Source: Escherichia coli
GTDB taxonomy: Bacteria > Pseudomonadota > Gammaproteobacteria > Enterobacterales > Enterobacteriaceae
Reading direction: 5' to 3' (one strand)
Length of the DNA stretch: 64,000 nucleotides
NCBI RefSeq assembly: GCF_003018235.1
Contig: NZ_CP027437.1
Shown here: piece after piece, positions 1-17,451 of the stretch
How positions within the stretch are numbered: the first letter of the stretch is position 1
Layout of the letters: each line of letters opens with the position of its first letter
Made by a program: the position numbers and the translations under genes
The notes under the pieces: generated by a model
The model's database searches: none
What the model was told of the DNA's origin: nothing
Seen by the model: only the letters and a program-made list of their open reading frames with translations

Positions 1-1007
1 AAGTTGCCCGCCAGCGCGCGGTGTTTACCGATCACATTACCATGATGGATGCGGTGAACGCCGAAGAAGTGGTGTGCATTGAAACCGGGCAGGCCTTTCG
101 TGACCATTTCGGCGGCCCTTACGCGGTGATCCACCGGGTTGATATTCACGCCTCGGTGTGGGAAGCGGTACTGACGCATCCGGACGTGGAATATCACACC
201 TCCACCAACGTCGTGGATATTCGCGAGACGGAAGACGATGTCACCGTGTTTGACGATCGCGGCAATAGCTGGACCGGCGATATTCTGATTGGCTGTGACG
301 GCGTGAAGTCAGTGGTGCGCCAGAGCTTATTGGGCGATGCGCCGCGTGTCACCGGACATGTTGTCTACCGTGCGGTTATCGATCGTGCCGATATGCCGGA
401 AGATTTGCGCATTAACGCACCGGTACTGTGGGCGGGGCCACATTGTCACTTGGTGCATTACCCTTTGCGCGGCGGCAAGCAGTATAACCTGGTGGTAACA
501 TTCCACAGCCGCCAGCAGGAAGAGTGGGGCGTGAAGGATGGTAGTAAAGAGGAAGTGCTCTCTTACTTTGAAGGGATTCACCCCCGTCCGCGCCAGATGT
601 TGGATAAACCGACTTCATGGCGACGCTGGTCAACCGCTGACCGTGAACCGGTGGCGAAGTGGGGAACGAAGCGCATAACGCTTGTGGGCGATTCGGCCCA
701 TCCGGTGGCGCAATATATGGCGCAGGGAGCCTGTATGGCGCTGGAAGATGCAGTAACGCTGGGTAAGGCGCTGGCGCAGTGTGAGGGTGATGCGGCGCAG
801 GCCTTTGCGCTGTATGAGTCGGTACGAATTCCGCGCACCGCGCGCATCGTCTGGTCGACCCGTGAAATGGGGCGGGTTTACCACGCCGCAGGGGTAGAAC
901 GCCAGGTACGTAATCTGCTGTGGAAAGGGAAATCGCAGGCAGAATTTTATCGCGGCATGGAGTGGTTGTACGGCTGGAAAGAAGATAACTGTTTGCAACC
1001 ACGCTGA
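1..1007 (+). CDS. FAD-dependent aromatic-ring monooxygenase (salicylate / 3-hydroxybenzoate hydroxylase family), C-terminal portion; 5' end lies outside the window
   Basis: ORF track 21..1007; the same frame stays open back to position 1. Contains the flavoprotein hydroxylase motif VGDSAHPVAQYMAQGACMALEDA (GD-AH...G-G). Not part of the K-12 dusC neighbourhood as I recall it. Confidence 0.75.
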   Translation, partial: VARQRAVFTDHITMMDAVNAEEVVCIETGQAFRDHFGGPYAVIHRVDIHASVWEAVLTHPDVEYHTSTNVVDIRETEDDVTVFDDRGNSWTGDILIGCDGVKSVVRQSLLGDAPRVTGHVVYRAVIDRADMPEDLRINAPVLWAGPHCHLVHYPLRGGKQYNLVVTFHSRQQEEWGVKDGSKEEVLSYFEGIHPRPRQMLDKPTSWRRWSTADREPVAKWGTKRITLVGDSAHPVAQYMAQGACMALEDAVTLGKALAQCEGDAAQAFALYESVRIPRTARIVWSTREMGRVYHAAGVERQVRNLLWKGKSQAEFYRGMEWLYGWKEDNCLQPR

Positions 1008-1034
1008 GCACTTCTTCACCCAATCAGGCGCACG

Positions 1035-1080
1035 GGCGGTCCCCTCGCCCCTTCGGGAGAGGGTTAGGGTGAGGGTAAAA
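1035..1080. repeat. G/C-tract imperfect palindrome (cccctcgcccc-ttc-gggagaggg ... gggtgaggg)
   Basis: Read directly from sequence; resembles small GC-rich intergenic palindromes of enterobacteria. Family assignment not possible without a search. Confidence 0.3.
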
Positions 1081-1125
1081 ATCTTGCCCGAATTAATCAG
1101 TAAGTCAGTTTGTCTGCAAACACAG

Positions 1126-1154
1126 GAGGCGCTAACATAGCGCCTCATTTTTTT
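1126..1154 (+). terminator. Intrinsic terminator-like hairpin: perfect 8-bp stem gaggcgct/agcgcctc, loop aacat, followed by T7
   Basis: Seen in sequence; lies downstream of the monooxygenase gene and only about 12 nt upstream of the dusC start codon. Confidence 0.6.
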
Positions 1155-1166
1155 GCGGGTGATGAT

Positions 1167-2117
1167 ATGCGTGTGTTACTGGCACCGATGGAGGGAGTGC
1201 TTGACTCTCTGGTGCGTGAATTGCTGACCGAAGTTAACGACTACGATCTGTGCATCACCGAGTTCGTCCGCGTGGTGGATCAACTGCTGCCGGTAAAAGT
1301 CTTTCATCGCATTTGCCCTGAGCTACAAAACGCCAGCCGGACACCATCCGGTACGCTGGTGCGCGTGCAGTTGTTGGGTCAGTTCCCACAATGGCTGGCA
1401 GAGAACGCCGCCCGTGCGGTGGAATTAGGTTCCTGGGGCGTGGATCTCAATTGCGGCTGCCCGTCGAAAACGGTCAACGGCAGCGGTGGTGGGGCAACGT
1501 TACTCAAAGATCCTGAACTCATCTACCAGGGTGCAAAAGCGATGCGCGAAGCTGTACCGGCGCATTTGCCCGTCAGCGTGAAAGTGCGTCTGGGCTGGGA
1601 CAGCGGTGAGAAGAAATTTGAAATCGCCGATGCGGTTCAACAGGCTGGTGCTACGGAGCTGGTGGTGCATGGACGGACAAAAGAGCAGGGTTACCGCGCG
1701 GAGCATATTGACTGGCAGGCGATTGGCGAGATTCGCCAGCGGCTGAATATTCCGGTGATTGCCAACGGCGAAATCTGGGACTGGCAGAGCGCGCAACAAT
1801 GCATTGCGATCAGCGGCTGCGACGCAGTGATGATTGGTCGCGGGGCGCTCAATATTCCCAACCTGAGCCGGGTAGTAAAATATAACGAACCGCGAATGCC
1901 GTGGCCGGAGGTGGTTGCTTTGCTGCAAAAATATACCCGTCTGGAAAAGCAGGGCGATACCGGGTTATATCACGTAGCGCGGATTAAACAGTGGTTGAGT
2001 TATTTGCGTAAAGAATACGATGAAGCAACGGAATTATTTCAGCATGTTCGGGTGTTGAATAATTCCCCTGATATTGCAAGGGCTATTCAGGCAATTGATA
2101 TCGATAAGCTGCGATAA
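1167..2117 (+). CDS. dusC: tRNA-dihydrouridine synthase C
   Basis: ORF 1110..2117; start chosen at ATG 1167 ([20 protein letters not shown]...), matching the remembered DusC N-terminus; Dus-family TIM barrel (NCGCP motif). Confidence 0.93.
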
Positions 2118-2219
2118 TAGTGGAATCGCAGTTTATCAGAGACAATGAATCGCTTATTCAGCGTCATCATCTTGTTGCGCTCCTTTCATGAGCTAAGCCA
2201 CATATTGCCACTGGCGCAA

Positions 2220-2420
2220 GGAGCGCGCAGGGGGAGGACAATCGCCTCCTCCCCCTGCCCCCCCGGGCTCTGGCGAACAAAATCGCCGCTGCGCGGTACC
2301 TTCAGCTTATCCCCTTCGGCTACCGGGTCGGGCGCGAGGAAACGTCCTTGTAAGACGCGCCCTCAGCCCACATCCATGTGGGCTGCCCCGGCCTTCGGGG
2401 AACGCTTCAGCGATTTTGAC
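2220..2420. other. GC-rich structured intergenic element with several hairpins (perfect 12-bp stem gcagggggagga/tcctccccctgc at 2226-2256; 10-bp stem cagcccacat/atgtgggctg at about 2354-2377)
   Basis: Seen in sequence. The 107-aa ORF 2145..2468 across it has no convincing RBS and is probably not coding. Confidence 0.3.
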
Positions 2421-2504
2421 GCCACCAACACCGGAGCTGTTTGCAAATCAAGTACACAAAATATCTAGTTCCTGACCTGACAACTTATATGCCATATCTG
2501 ATTT

Positions 2505-2588
2505 TTAAAATATCATCTTAAATACGCCAGTCACCACCAGTAGCCCAATCAGGAAAATAATCAATACAGCCCAGAGTATAATTTTCAT
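2505..2588 (-). CDS. yohP: Small hydrophobic membrane peptide YohP (27 aa, MKIILWAVLIIFLIGLLVVTGVFKMIF)
   Basis: Translated by hand from the minus strand (ATG complement at 2586-2588, TAA complement at 2505-2507); below the 60-aa cutoff of the ORF track; matches the remembered K-12 small protein. Confidence 0.8.
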   Translation of the reverse strand: MKIILWAVLIIFLIGLLVVTGVFKMIF

Positions 2589-2811
2589 TGGCGTTCCTTT
2601 ATTTGTGAGTGCTGAATAAGTATAGGAAAAAACGAAGCCCTTTGCCGTTATCCATAAACGATTAAGATAAATCGGAAGATATCATTCACTTAGTGTATAT
2701 TTTTCTGGATATGTCGTTTTATTGCTACTGATGTATTGCCACGCGGAACTAAAAAATATATCGCAACACACGGTAATCTCCGCGCACCTTTTCTTACCTG
2801 ATTATTCCCCC

Positions 2812-4248
2812 ATGAATCGTGATTCCTTTTATCCAGCCATCGCCTGTTTTCCGCTGTTACTGATGCTGACCGGGTGTGCGCCTATGCATGAAACCCGCCA
2901 GGCGTTAAGCCAGCAAACGCCCGCTGCACAAGTTGACACCGCATTACCCACGGCGCTGAAAAATGGTTGGCCAGACAGCCAATGGTGGCTGGAGTATCAC
3001 GATAATCAACTCACTTCATTAATTAACAATGCACTACAGAACGCACCGGATATGCAGGTGGCTGAACAGCGCATTCAGCTAGCTGAAGCCCAGGCGAAGG
3101 CAATTGCCACTCAGGATGGTCCGCAGATCGACTTTTCTGCGGATATGGAGCGGCAAAAAATGTCGGCAGAAGGGCTAATGGGGCCGTTTGCTCTGAACGA
3201 TCCGGCCGCAGGTACGACCGGTCCGTGGTACACCAACGGAACTTTTGGCTTAACGGCGGGCTGGCATCTCGATATCTGGGGAAAGAATCGGGCGGAGGTT
3301 ACTGCCCGCCTGGGTACGGTTAAAGCACGGGCGGCGGAACGCGAGCAAACCCGCCAATTGCTGGCTGGCAGCGTAGCCCGCCTGTACTGGGAGTGGCAAA
3401 CCCAGGCGGCGTTAAACACGGTCTTGCAGCAAATAGAAAAAGAGCAGAACACCATTATCGCGACCGATCGTCAGCTATATCAGAACGGGATTACTTCTTC
3501 AGTTGAAGGTGTGGAAACCGATATTAATGCCAGCAAAACCCGGCAGCAGCTCAACGATGTCGCGGGGAAAATGAAAATTATTGAGGCACGGTTAAGCGCA
3601 CTTACAAATCACCAGACAAAGTCATTGAAGCTTAAACCGGTCGCGTTGCCGAAAGTGGCAAGCCAGCTTCCTGATGAACTGGGGTACTCCTTACTGGCCC
3701 GGCGGGCAGATTTGCAGGCGGCGCACTGGTACGTTGAGTCATCGCTAAGCACTATTGATGCGGCAAAAGCGGCATTTTATCCTGACATCAACCTGATGGC
3801 CTTCCTGCAACAGGATGCGTTGCACTTAAGCGATCTGTTCCGTCATTCCGCGCAGCAAATGGGCGTTACGGCAGGCCTGACGCTACCCATTTTCGATAGT
3901 GGTCGTCTTAACGCCAATCTCGATATCGCAAAAGCCGAAAGCAACTTGTCTATCGCCAGCTACAACAAAGCGGTGGTTGAAGCGGTGAATGACGTGGCGC
4001 GGGCAGCCAGTCAGGTTCAGACACTGGCGGAGAAAAACCAGCATCAGGCGCAAATTGAGCGCGATGCCTTGCGTGTGGTAGGTCTTGCGCAGGCCCGCTT
4101 TAACGCGGGCATCATTGCTGGTTCCCGCGTCAGCGAAGCCAGAATCCCCGCGCTGCGTGAGCGGGCCAATGGCCTGTTATTGCAAGGGCAGTGGCTGGAT
4201 GCCTCCATTCAACTCACTGGTGCGTTGGGCGGGGGTTACAAACGCTGA
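2812..4248 (+). CDS. mdtQ: Outer-membrane efflux lipoprotein (OMF/NodT family); appears intact here
   Basis: ORF 2722..4248; start chosen at ATG 2812 (MNRDSFYPAIACFPLLLMLTGCAP) giving a lipobox LTGC; uninterrupted 478 codons. Confidence 0.85.
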   Translation: MNRDSFYPAIACFPLLLMLTGCAPMHETRQALSQQTPAAQVDTALPTALKNGWPDSQWWLEYHDNQLTSLINNALQNAPDMQVAEQRIQLAEAQAKAIATQDGPQIDFSADMERQKMSAEGLMGPFALNDPAAGTTGPWYTNGTFGLTAGWHLDIWGKNRAEVTARLGTVKARAAEREQTRQLLAGSVARLYWEWQTQAALNTVLQQIEKEQNTIIATDRQLYQNGITSSVEGVETDINASKTRQQLNDVAGKMKIIEARLSALTNHQTKSLKLKPVALPKVASQLPDELGYSLLARRADLQAAHWYVESSLSTIDAAKAAFYPDINLMAFLQQDALHLSDLFRHSAQQMGVTAGLTLPIFDSGRLNANLDIAKAESNLSIASYNKAVVEAVNDVARAASQVQTLAEKNQHQAQIERDALRVVGLAQARFNAGIIAGSRVSEARIPALRERANGLLLQGQWLDASIQLTGALGGGYKR

Positions 4249-16572: not shown

Positions 16573-17304
16573 ATGAAGATGTTGCGCGATCCGCTGTTCT
16601 GGCTCATTGCTTTGTTTGTGGCACTGATTTTCTGGCTGCCTTACAGCCAGCCGCTGTTTGCTGCCTTGTACCCACAACTGCCACGACCCGTTTATCAGCA
16701 AGAAAGTTTTGCAGCTCTGGCACTGGCTCATTTCTGGCTGGTGGGAATTTCGAGTTTGTTTGCGGTGATCATTGGTACTGGTGCCGGAATTGCTGTCACT
16801 CGCCCGTGGGGCGCGGAATTTCGCCCACTGGTGGAAACTATTGCCGCCGTTGGACAGACTTTTCCGCCCGTCGCGGTGCTGGCGATCGCCGTTCCGGTGA
16901 TCGGGTTTGGTCTGCAACCAGCGATTATCGCCTTGATCCTTTACGGTGTGCTGCCCGTCCTGCAGGCGACACTTGCCGGGCTGGGAGCGATTGATGCCAG
17001 CGTGACAGAAGTTGCGAAAGGTATGGGAATGAGTCGTGGTCAGCGACTGCGTAAGGTCGAGCTACCGCTGGCGGCTCCGGTGATTCTGGCGGGCGTGCGA
17101 ACTTCGGTGATTATCAACATTGGTACGGCGACGATCGCCTCAACGGTAGGGGCCAGCACGCTGGGTACGCCCATCATCATCGGGCTTAGCGGATTTAATA
17201 CCGCGTATGTGATCCAGGGGGCGTTACTGGTGGCACTGGCGGCGATCATCGCAGACCGCCTGTTTGAAAGGCTGGTGCAGGCGCTTAGCCAGCACGCAAA
17301 ATAA
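16573..17304 (+). CDS. yehW: ABC transporter permease
   Basis: ORF track 16573..17304; membrane permease. Confidence 0.92.
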
Positions 17305-17392
17305 AGGTATAACCTGCGAGCATGACGCCACCAATTCCGCCTAACGCCATAAACAGGAACAGGGCGATGACCCCAATTTTAGCTATGCGCAT
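17285..17392 (-). CDS. yohO: Small membrane peptide YohO (35 aa, [35 protein letters not shown])
   Basis: Hand-translated from the minus strand; the 3' end overlaps the last 20 nt of convergent yehW; below the ORF-track cutoff. Confidence 0.8.
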
Positions 17393-17451
17393 AATGCACT
17401 CCTTATGTTAACGAAAGGATTGTACAGTAAAGCGCATTTGTTAACGAATCA

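Follow-up and report, generated by a model that had tools for sequence, protein, structure and literature searches.

The TRIP1 repeats of Escherichia coli (TRIP1a to TRIP1e) were named by Rudd (Res Microbiol 1999) and have since been surveyed in 6725 genomes (Li et al. 2024, Genes 15:236, PMC10888264). According to the survey they occupy five fixed loci across thousands of genomes, and 156 rearrangements between copies are reported. TRIP1c is the copy located 43-44 bp downstream of yohI/dusC, where both orientations are on record (2952 forward and 2789 reverse), and TRIP1b is described as a deletion derivative (PMC10888264).

In K-12, two repeats of 222 bp, RRS-dusC and RRS-lysO, have been characterized as the "replication risk sequences" of E. 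coli (Pham et al. NAR 2023, PMC10287960; NAR 2024, PMC11194060; Kusi-Appauh et al. bioRxiv 2026). The authors of this work equate the RRS with the TRIP1 repeats of the 1999 screen, TRIP1a being RRS-lysO and TRIP1c being RRS-dusC. In K-12 the pair forms inverted copies ~650 kb either side of dif, and the strand containing the G-quadruplex (G4) is located on the lagging-strand template, where it blocks polymerases and gives rise to post-replication gaps (Pham 2023, 2024). In vitro the RRS acts as a block to Pol I, II and IV; in vivo it biases the replication of M13, and it is also active at ectopic sites (Pham). The lagging-strand gaps, bound by RecA and SSB and extending over ~0.3-2 kb, are lost on deletion of the RRS, and both copies could be deleted only along with a 200-kb amplification (Pham). 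In an engineered inverted RRS the RecA/SSB peak is absent and complementation is kept, while deleting or inverting both copies alters genome-wide supercoiling; the authors hypothesize that the gaps serve as "topological relief valves" at the borders of the Ter macrodomain (Pham). In a single-molecule preprint, the G4 on the lagging template produced a gap at essentially every passage of the replisome, whereas on the leading template the gap frequency was ~66% and the gap size 328 nt, as opposed to 698 nt on the lagging template (Kusi-Appauh 2026).

The stretch of DNA analysed here, hereafter the window, comprises 64,000 nucleotides (64 kb) of E. coli sequence. It contains the convergent genes dusC and yohP, both correctly named in the first-pass annotation, which are separated by a spacer of 387 bp; mdtQ lies farther along, past the repeat described below and yohP. 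The strand of the repeat that carries the G-run is called the G strand. The main features of the locus are the following:

1167-2117, plus strand: dusC, tRNA-dihydrouridine(16) synthase, the upstream neighbour of the repeat.
2145-2468, plus strand: a chance open reading frame of 107 amino acids, not a gene.
2157-2466, no strand assigned: the repeat in its full extent (TRIP1c with extended ends), delimited by the blastn core and by the megablast match of 2164-2466 to the K-12 aqpZ-lysO copy.
2209-2428, minus strand (the G4-bearing "sense" strand): the equivalent of the K-12 222-bp RRS-dusC, 202 of 220 positions identical (92%), reversed relative to dusC.
2245-2264, minus strand: the G-run GGGGGGGCAGGGGGAGGAGG, identified with G4Hunter, counterpart of the K-12 G-quadruplex sequence GGGGGTGCAGGGGGCGGCGG.
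2505-2588, minus strand: yohP, encoding a 27-amino-acid membrane protein, the convergent neighbour, co-directional with the G strand of the repeat.

The GC-rich stretch that follows dusC is, with high confidence, the known E. coli repeat TRIP1c, identical with RRS-dusC, that is, a DNA element acting at replication and not a gene. The 273-bp TRIP1c of K-12 aligns to positions 2174-2428 of the window with 227 of 255 positions identical, and 2164-2466 is 90.5% identical to TRIP1a of K-12 over 303 bp, the extended ends of the window copy being nearer to K-12 TRIP1a than to K-12 TRIP1c. These values were read against a similarity of ~84-94% to K-12 TRIP1a/c over ~266-273 bp and a TRIP1c locus ~44 bp downstream of yohI/dusC and upstream of yohG/mdtQ. 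In the window the repeat starts 40-57 bp after the end of dusC, at the locus published for TRIP1c. It agrees with the TRIP1 family also in its length of ~270 bp, its G+C content of 62-65% and its very stable, multi-branched "double-Y" fold; nothing essential differs, and its orientation is opposite to that in K-12. The comparison sequence for RRS-dusC was taken as K-12 nucleotides 58-281 downstream of dusC, following the definition of the RRS in PMC11194060, and the window copy is likewise a 222-bp-type GC-rich repeat adjoining dusC that has kept the G-run and all hairpins.

The recurrence of the element points the same way. When the spacer was searched by megablast in 5426 complete genomes of E. 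coli, ~302 bp of it proved to be repeated, with a median of 3 places per genome (range 1-8); the family is present in 5425 of the 5426. The BLASTN search for further copies proposed in the first-pass annotation thus leads to the published TRIP1 family. Further copies lie in the aqpZ-lysO, putP-efeU and alx-sstT spacers, in agreement with the published loci; the putP-efeU copy, TRIP1b, is missing the central 125 bp. No second copy was found within the 64-kb window.

The G+C content is 58% at 2145-2470 and 63% in the core (2172-2445), compared with 50.6% for the whole window, which bears out the GC-richness remarked upon in the first-pass annotation. That annotation had offered three readings. 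A repeat family proved correct, a "remnant" did not, both full copies being experimentally characterized RRS, and a structured RNA or 3' UTR element received no support. TRIP1c/RRS-dusC has already been named twice and has an experimentally supported mechanism at the DNA level; the finding is a rediscovery. The parts worth keeping are the natural polymorphisms in orientation and occupancy, set against the orientation-dependent model, and a putative architectural link to repeats of the TwoAYGGAY type. RefSeq is blank at the repeat in the E. coli records examined, although in K-12 it is a conditionally essential element of chromosome structure.

Two groups of bacterial elements invite comparison. 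The pilE-associated G-quadruplex of Neisseria gonorrhoeae, the sole precedent according to the RRS authors, is also a bacterial G4 with a strand-dependent effect on replication and gaps. However, its sequence is unrelated, its function is in the antigenic variation of pilin, and it consists of one short G4 and not of a 270-bp repeat with multiple hairpins. The REP/BIME, boxC and ERIC elements are, like TRIP1, intergenic, palindromic and multi-copy, and REP and boxC are also GC-rich, but TRIP1 is five to eight times longer, is found in 1-8 copies per genome at fixed loci and contains no REP consensus. A search of the whole 64-kb window allowing up to 3 mismatches gave 0 matches to the REP consensus; its absence had been correctly noted earlier, and a REP/BIME identity was rejected.

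The G-run, the part of the repeat to which the published block is attributed, was compared with the K-12 G4 sequence given by Pham 2024 (PMC11194060). The G4Hunter score over 25 nt is 2.2 on the minus strand (2240-2264), the highest on either strand in 64 kb, and the corresponding K-12 value is 1.84; the maximum on the plus strand of the window is 1.24. As in the RRS, a single run with predicted potential to form a G-quadruplex is therefore present on one strand. The G-run of the window differs from that of K-12 at three positions, and it carries the GGAGGAGG variant.

The spacer is predicted to fold with energies of -147 and -178 kcal/mol, corresponding to z scores against dinucleotide shuffles of -6.0 for the plus strand and -7.2 for the minus strand, and 0 of 100 shuffles were as good. 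The two perfect stems reported in the first-pass annotation were both recovered, a 12-bp stem in which GCAGGGGGAGGA (2227-2238) pairs with TCCTCCCCCTGC (2247-2258) across an 8-nt loop, and a 10-bp stem in which CAGCCCACAT (2364-2373) pairs with ATGTGGGCTG (2376-2385). The structural elements are arranged along the repeat as follows:

2177-2226, no strand assigned: arm hairpin GCGCTCCTT...AAGGAGCGC at the dusC-proximal end, in which alignment positions 228-234 pair with 272-278, two of the pairs being compensatory.
2227-2258, no strand assigned: the 12-bp hairpin with the 8-nt loop; the arm overlapping the G-run is the 3' one on the plus strand and the 5' one on the G strand.
2272-2428, no strand assigned: the central domain, with a closing stem of ~20 bp (2272-2296 with 2403-2428) round hairpins 1 and 2, deleted in TRIP1b.
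2330-2362, minus strand: hairpin 2 of the central domain, reading GGGCGCG..UACAAGGACGU..CGCGCCC on the G strand and aligned to the second hairpin of RF01731.
2364-2385, minus strand: hairpin 1 of the central domain, reading CAGCCCACA-UGGA-UGUGGGCUG on the G strand, with the loop word ACAUGGAUGU, aligned to the first AYGGAY hairpin of RF01731.

Covariation was assessed in an alignment of ten full copies, comprising the a, c and d types of E. coli in both orientations and two copies from E. albertii. The consensus contains 81 pairs, 12 of which show compensatory double changes. In the 12-bp hairpin, two such changes separate the window from K-12 (GGAGGA/TCCTCC as opposed to GGCGGC/GCCGCC, pairs 204:219 and 207:216). 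Hairpin 1 differs in TRIP1d by three compensatory pairs with the loop unaltered, and in hairpin 2 the pair 93:113 changes from G-C to A-U in the same copy. The two GGA loops are kept in the alignment while their stems covary. The compensatory changes indicate that the structure is maintained by selection, and with recurrence and covariation both present, the counter-evidence envisaged in the first-pass annotation did not appear. Several G-U pairs, valid only on the G strand, are invariant across the ten copies, and the G strand is the stabler one in all ten, by 11-30 kcal/mol with RNA parameters and by 3-8 kcal/mol with DNA parameters. The greater stability of the G strand matches the published stronger block by this strand, and it fits equally well an RNA made from it.

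By analogy with K-12, the element would act when the duplex is unwound at the replication fork and the RRS strands are free to fold into the G-quadruplex and several long hairpins. The folded RRS would block the polymerase, the replisome would skip ahead, and a post-replication single-strand gap would be left on the lagging strand, to be loaded with SSB and RecA, a course of events demonstrated experimentally for K-12 in the published papers. The ~300-bp repeat may in addition serve as a substrate for homologous recombination between copies.

The orientation of the window copy is where it departs from this scheme. The K-12 dusC spacer matches the window only on the opposite strand, with 88% identity, and the two alleles have only ~30-40 bp beside each gene in common. 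The GC skew of the plus strand of the window is positive throughout, which corresponds to leading-strand composition and points to the minus (G) strand as the leading-strand template. The G4 strand of the window copy is thus not placed on the lagging-strand template as it is in wild-type K-12, and this allele, known from its sequence, resembles the engineered inverted RRS. According to the published data such an allele would be expected to give fewer and smaller gaps, by way of the weaker C strand, and its RecA/SSB peak would be absent in vivo. Location on the lagging-strand template is a trait of the K-12 arrangement and not of the sequence family, and the engineered inverted RRS is still called an RRS.

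The flipped arrangement is widespread. Among the 5426 complete genomes, the dusC-yohP spacer carries the repeat in the K-12-like orientation in 3318 and in the flipped orientation, that of the window allele, in 1999; for the aqpZ-lysO spacer the counts are 4028 and 945. Similar numbers were obtained by Li et al. (PMC10888264). In ECNB21-M121, a close relative, the window allele at dusC is found together with a flipped lysO copy, so that by GC skew both G strands would be located on leading-strand templates; its two RRS copies are mutually inverted and 1.41 Mb apart. Both flipped alleles are found in O157:H7 genomes, in different strains, and a flipped lysO copy occurs without the window-type allele at dusC in two strains (L005 and L006). 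By reasoning, a flip in place cannot be derived from the 1.3-Mb inversion that is known to join TRIP1a with TRIP1c, because exchange between these copies keeps the orientation of each relative to its outer flank.

The orientation that has been called active is not conserved in nature, which weighs against a simple functional model. About 37% of complete genomes for RRS-dusC and ~17% for RRS-lysO carry the orientation that abolishes the RecA/SSB peaks in engineered K-12. Since both orientation and occupancy are polymorphic, natural isolates represent ready-made tests of the effects of RRS orientation and position.

Occupancy also varies outside E. coli. The dusC-yohP spacer is 43 bp long in E. 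fergusonii and 103 bp in two Citrobacter lineages (L134 and L135), while in a third (L136) the DNA contains a spacer of ~40 bp and the yohP gene was not called. TRIP1 is absent from the spacers of E. fergusonii and these three Citrobacter DusC lineages, which hold a plain hairpin or REP, and the position of the repeat is therefore not conserved throughout the family, a second point against a simple functional model. Empty sites of this kind, with a plain terminator or REP instead of the repeat, are what would be expected of a MITE-like relic that once moved or spread horizontally, without host function and serving only as a recombination substrate, its replication effects being a structural by-product. 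The polymorphic presence at 1-8 places per genome, the deletion derivative TRIP1b and the 156 published inter-copy rearrangements (PMC10888264) agree with such an origin, as do the occurrence of the repeat in either orientation at one intergenic site, with differing junction sequences, and the multi-copy families with the same core architecture in many Gammaproteobacteria. However, a comparison of filled sites in both orientations with the empty E. fergusonii and Citrobacter sites revealed no termini, inverted ends or target duplication; the termini are not definable because the flanks have diverged too far. There is no association with a transposase, and the repeat is confined to the five loci across thousands of genomes (PMC10888264). 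The compensating amplification needed for the double deletion in K-12 and the compensatory changes, which place the structure under selection, also speak for a function. A functionless relic is unlikely, and a DNA element acting at replication is the preferred reading.

An additional role at the RNA level, judged unlikely, was considered next to that in replication. The G strand, located in the 3' UTR of yohP (of dusC in K-12), would form a three-way junction similar to TwoAYGGAY (RF01731; Weinberg 2010), and a single CsrA dimer would be bound by its loops ACAUGGAUGU and ACAAGGACGU, whereby the neighbouring mRNA would be connected with the Csr system or CsrA would be titrated. No terminator consensus separates either dusC or yohP from the repeat, and both strands are therefore probably transcribed as 3' ends. 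The invariant loops with covarying stems and the conserved G-U pairs, which suit only the G strand, would be in line with such an RNA, as would the gain of 11-30 kcal/mol of this strand when it is folded as RNA.

In an Rfam scan at permissive thresholds, one of the checks proposed in the first-pass annotation, nothing exceeded a family threshold. The sole matches, all on the G strand, were to TwoAYGGAY, with 25.9 bits for the window and 30.6-30.9 bits for the K-12 copies against a gathering threshold of 43; the remainder was eukaryotic snoRNA and miRNA noise. A true Psychromonas member scores 68.4 bits. TRIP1 shares with TwoAYGGAY the long closing stem (P1), here of ~20 bp, round two hairpins, and the 4-nt loops with GGA closed by CA/UG. 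The same loop words are found in the original Psychromonas TwoAYGGAY alignment. Loop 1, AUGGAU, fits AYGGAY, whereas the second TRIP1 loop has the form A(A/G)GGA(C/U): it is AAGGAC in the window and AGGGAU, AGGGAC or AGGAC in other copies, with a purine or a gap at the position of Y. In addition, TRIP1 scores 26-31 bits against the required 43, is GC-rich, and contains an extra internal stem and ~130 further bases, comprising the G-run and the arm hairpins.

For TwoAYGGAY itself, binding of CsrA has been suggested before (Gardner and Eldai 2015). The two GGA loops of the repeat are 18 nt apart on the G strand and could, as far as the sequence indicates, provide the two sites for a dimer. The hairpin consensus of CsrA/RsmE is (A/U)CANGGANG(U/A), which both TRIP1 loops fit.

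A scan for the two-loop pattern ACATGGATGT-N12-40-ACANGGANGT, with one genome per species, retrieved the TRIP1 copies of E. albertii together with flagellin leaders, arrays resembling sponge RNAs of the CsrB/Rsm type, and strongly clustered multi-copy families. The flagellin leaders are similar to the classical two-site CsrA target (hag). The multi-copy two-hairpin families are found in at least Shewanella, Arenimonas, Lysobacter, Stenotrophomonas, Pseudoxanthomonas, Marinobacter, Acinetobacter and a Firmicutes MAG, and have a closing stem of 20-30 bp round the two hairpins. Among the matches listed, the Psychromonas locus alone passes the Rfam threshold. Such widespread two-GGA-hairpin repeats have so far been read as candidate sRNAs.

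In a search with a covariance model (R1) built from the central domain of TRIP1, the E. albertii copies scored 196 and 146 bits and some GC-rich two-hairpin elements from other genera only 17-35 bits; the bona fide Psychromonas TwoAYGGAY was not retrieved, so that the reciprocal model search gives no link between the two. It is a speculative proposal that TRIP1/RRS represents the enterobacterial branch of a wider multi-copy "two-GGA-hairpin" class, which would include TwoAYGGAY and the families of Shewanella, Xanthomonadales, Marinobacter, Acinetobacter and the Firmicutes MAG. If it held, either the G strand of the RRS would have a CsrA-related RNA role besides that in replication, or those repeats would be replication-gap elements like the RRS. 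The frequent flipping of one or both RRS in nature would in that case imply a conserved property other than a G4 on the lagging strand.

The CsrA role of the repeat is itself doubtful. In the CsrA integrated-transcriptomics tables of Potts 2017, dusC and ybjE are both marked "No" in each of four flag columns. In K-12 the G strand runs antisense to aqpZ/lysO, and its orientation is polymorphic at both loci, so that it has no fixed relation to a host transcript. The stability of the G strand and the covariation of the stems would be expected equally for single-stranded DNA.

A role of the repeat as a transcription stop or 3'-end stabilizer for dusC and yohP, in place of the bidirectional terminator of relatives, is quite improbable. 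It is true that at this site a short hairpin (one with a T-run) stands in place of the repeat in E. fergusonii and Citrobacter, that no terminator consensus was found between dusC and yohP in the window, and that the flipped lysO allele is without the aqpZ terminator that is present in the K-12 allele. However, no U-run follows any of the stems, 300 bp far exceeds what a terminator needs, and other copies are located upstream of genes (lysO, sstT, efeU). A search in and beside the repeat for promoter and terminator consensus sequences gave none inside it and one weak promoter-like site near yohP, fewer than in shuffles. A terminator would also leave the conserved loops and the replication phenotype unexplained.

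That the ATG-initiated open frame of 107 amino acids spanning the region encodes a protein can be practically dismissed, as it has no Pfam family, its frame is not kept among the copies and its ATG lies in unique flank outside the repeat, the repeat is inverted in K-12, the frame is unannotated in the RefSeq genomes examined, and long open frames are expected at 63% G+C. The limits of 2145-2470 given to the element in the first-pass annotation are those of this chance frame; the repeat lies inside them, with homology extending from 2157 or 2164 to 2466. The "proline-like codon runs" described there do exist, and are explained as C-runs of the C-rich strand.

The position of the RRS is not strictly conserved in enterobacteria, since the dusC-yohP spacer, which carries RRS-dusC (TRIP1c) in E. 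coli, is an “empty site” in both E. fergusonii and Citrobacter. In Citrobacter the empty site contains either a palindrome resembling REP or a hairpin, GGCCACCGGAGTGGCC, with a T-run.

Empty dusC-yohP sites
E. fergusonii (L132/L133), 3440-3482: spacer of 43 bp with one hairpin
Citrobacter (L134/L135), 3446-3548: spacer
Citrobacter (L136), 3452 to ~3490: spacer

In strain ES2 (H43, NZ_CM184352.1 1675041-1676478), an IS1A element is inserted in a K-12-type dusC-yohP stretch carrying RRS-dusC, somewhere between yohP and the dusC 3' portion.

The alleles of the aqpZ-lysO spacer, which harbors the copy RRS-lysO (TRIP1a), diverge across the entire spacer, beyond the repeat alone. The intrinsic terminator of aqpZ, present in K-12, is absent from the flipped allele, whose repeat is oriented oppositely to that of K-12, and this allele is accompanied by a different AqpZ protein accession, WP_000488716.1.

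Flipped aqpZ-lysO allele
ECNB21-M121 (L010), 16963-17420
L005/L006, 2363-2818

In some genomes the aqpZ-lysO spacer is ~140 bp shorter than either allele (H88-H90, e.g. NZ_CP172140.1 1282293-1282812), which may represent a partial or deleted RRS-lysO.

Plasmid-borne matches to TRIP1 are few, at 8-14 places in the genome collection. The 243-kb plasmid pEC16-AU-EG1 (L007, NZ_CP194962.1, ~200-210 kb) bears a chromosomal putA-putP-TRIP1b-efeUOB segment.

The region upstream of dusC in the window contains a gene of an accessory gentisate-type cluster and a second intergenic repeat.

Features upstream of dusC
21-1007: 3-hydroxybenzoate 6-monooxygenase gene
1026-1080: intergenic repeat between this gene and dusC, sequence GGTCCCCTCGCCCCTTCGGGAGAGGGTTAGGGTGAGGG

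In K-12 and strain 104 the place of the monooxygenase gene is taken by yohJ. In Citrobacter, dusC is preceded by the same genes for the FAD monooxygenase, GST and FAA-hydrolase. A match covering 80% or more of window 1-2600 is seen in only 497 of the 5426 complete E. coli genomes. The ~55-bp repeat has no kinship with the dusC-yohP element and occurs in E. coli at a median of 11 places in each genome (maximum 20); it may belong to the 56-bp boxC family.

Two nearby CsrA-type GGA hairpin loops, searched for as a pattern in one genome per species, occur in other bacteria in multi-copy repeat families and in tandem arrays, among other settings, the taxa named being those among the matches listed.

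Matches to the two-loop pattern
L069-L087, L053-L056, L091-L094, L111-L113, L034/35/88/89, L045-L052: multi-copy repeat families (Shewanella electrodiphila, Arenimonas soli, Lysobacter sedimenti, Pseudoxanthomonas, Stenotrophomonas, Acinetobacter, a Firmicutes MAG)
L022-L024, L040, L043-L044, L121-L123, L129-L130: tandem ACAUGGAUGU hairpin arrays (Colwellia, Cognaticolwellia, Alteromonadaceae, Kangiella, Woeseia, Endozoicomonas)

Each multi-copy family has a 20-30-bp closing stem enclosing two hairpins whose loops read ACAUGGAUGU / ACANGGAYGU, and comparison with Rfam gave no match above threshold, only weak ones to Ysr224. The tandem arrays, frequently located immediately 3' of a terminator, look like sponge RNAs of the CsrB/Rsm type. 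The top match outside Escherichia to the TRIP1 model, a covariance model of the TRIP1 central domain, is a hairpin pair in Pseudomonas fluorescens (L124, 4656-4739, 35 bits) with the loops CAAGGAUG and CAGGGAUG; this pair may represent either an RNA of the Rsm type or a further two-GGA element.

The pattern also retrieved an Oceanobacillus locus (L061, 593-660) that is a Bacillaceae-1 RNA (56.3 bits), encoded on the opposite strand from the match, in keeping with the suggestion, already made in the literature, that the reverse complement of Bacillaceae-1 RNA carries CsrA motifs.
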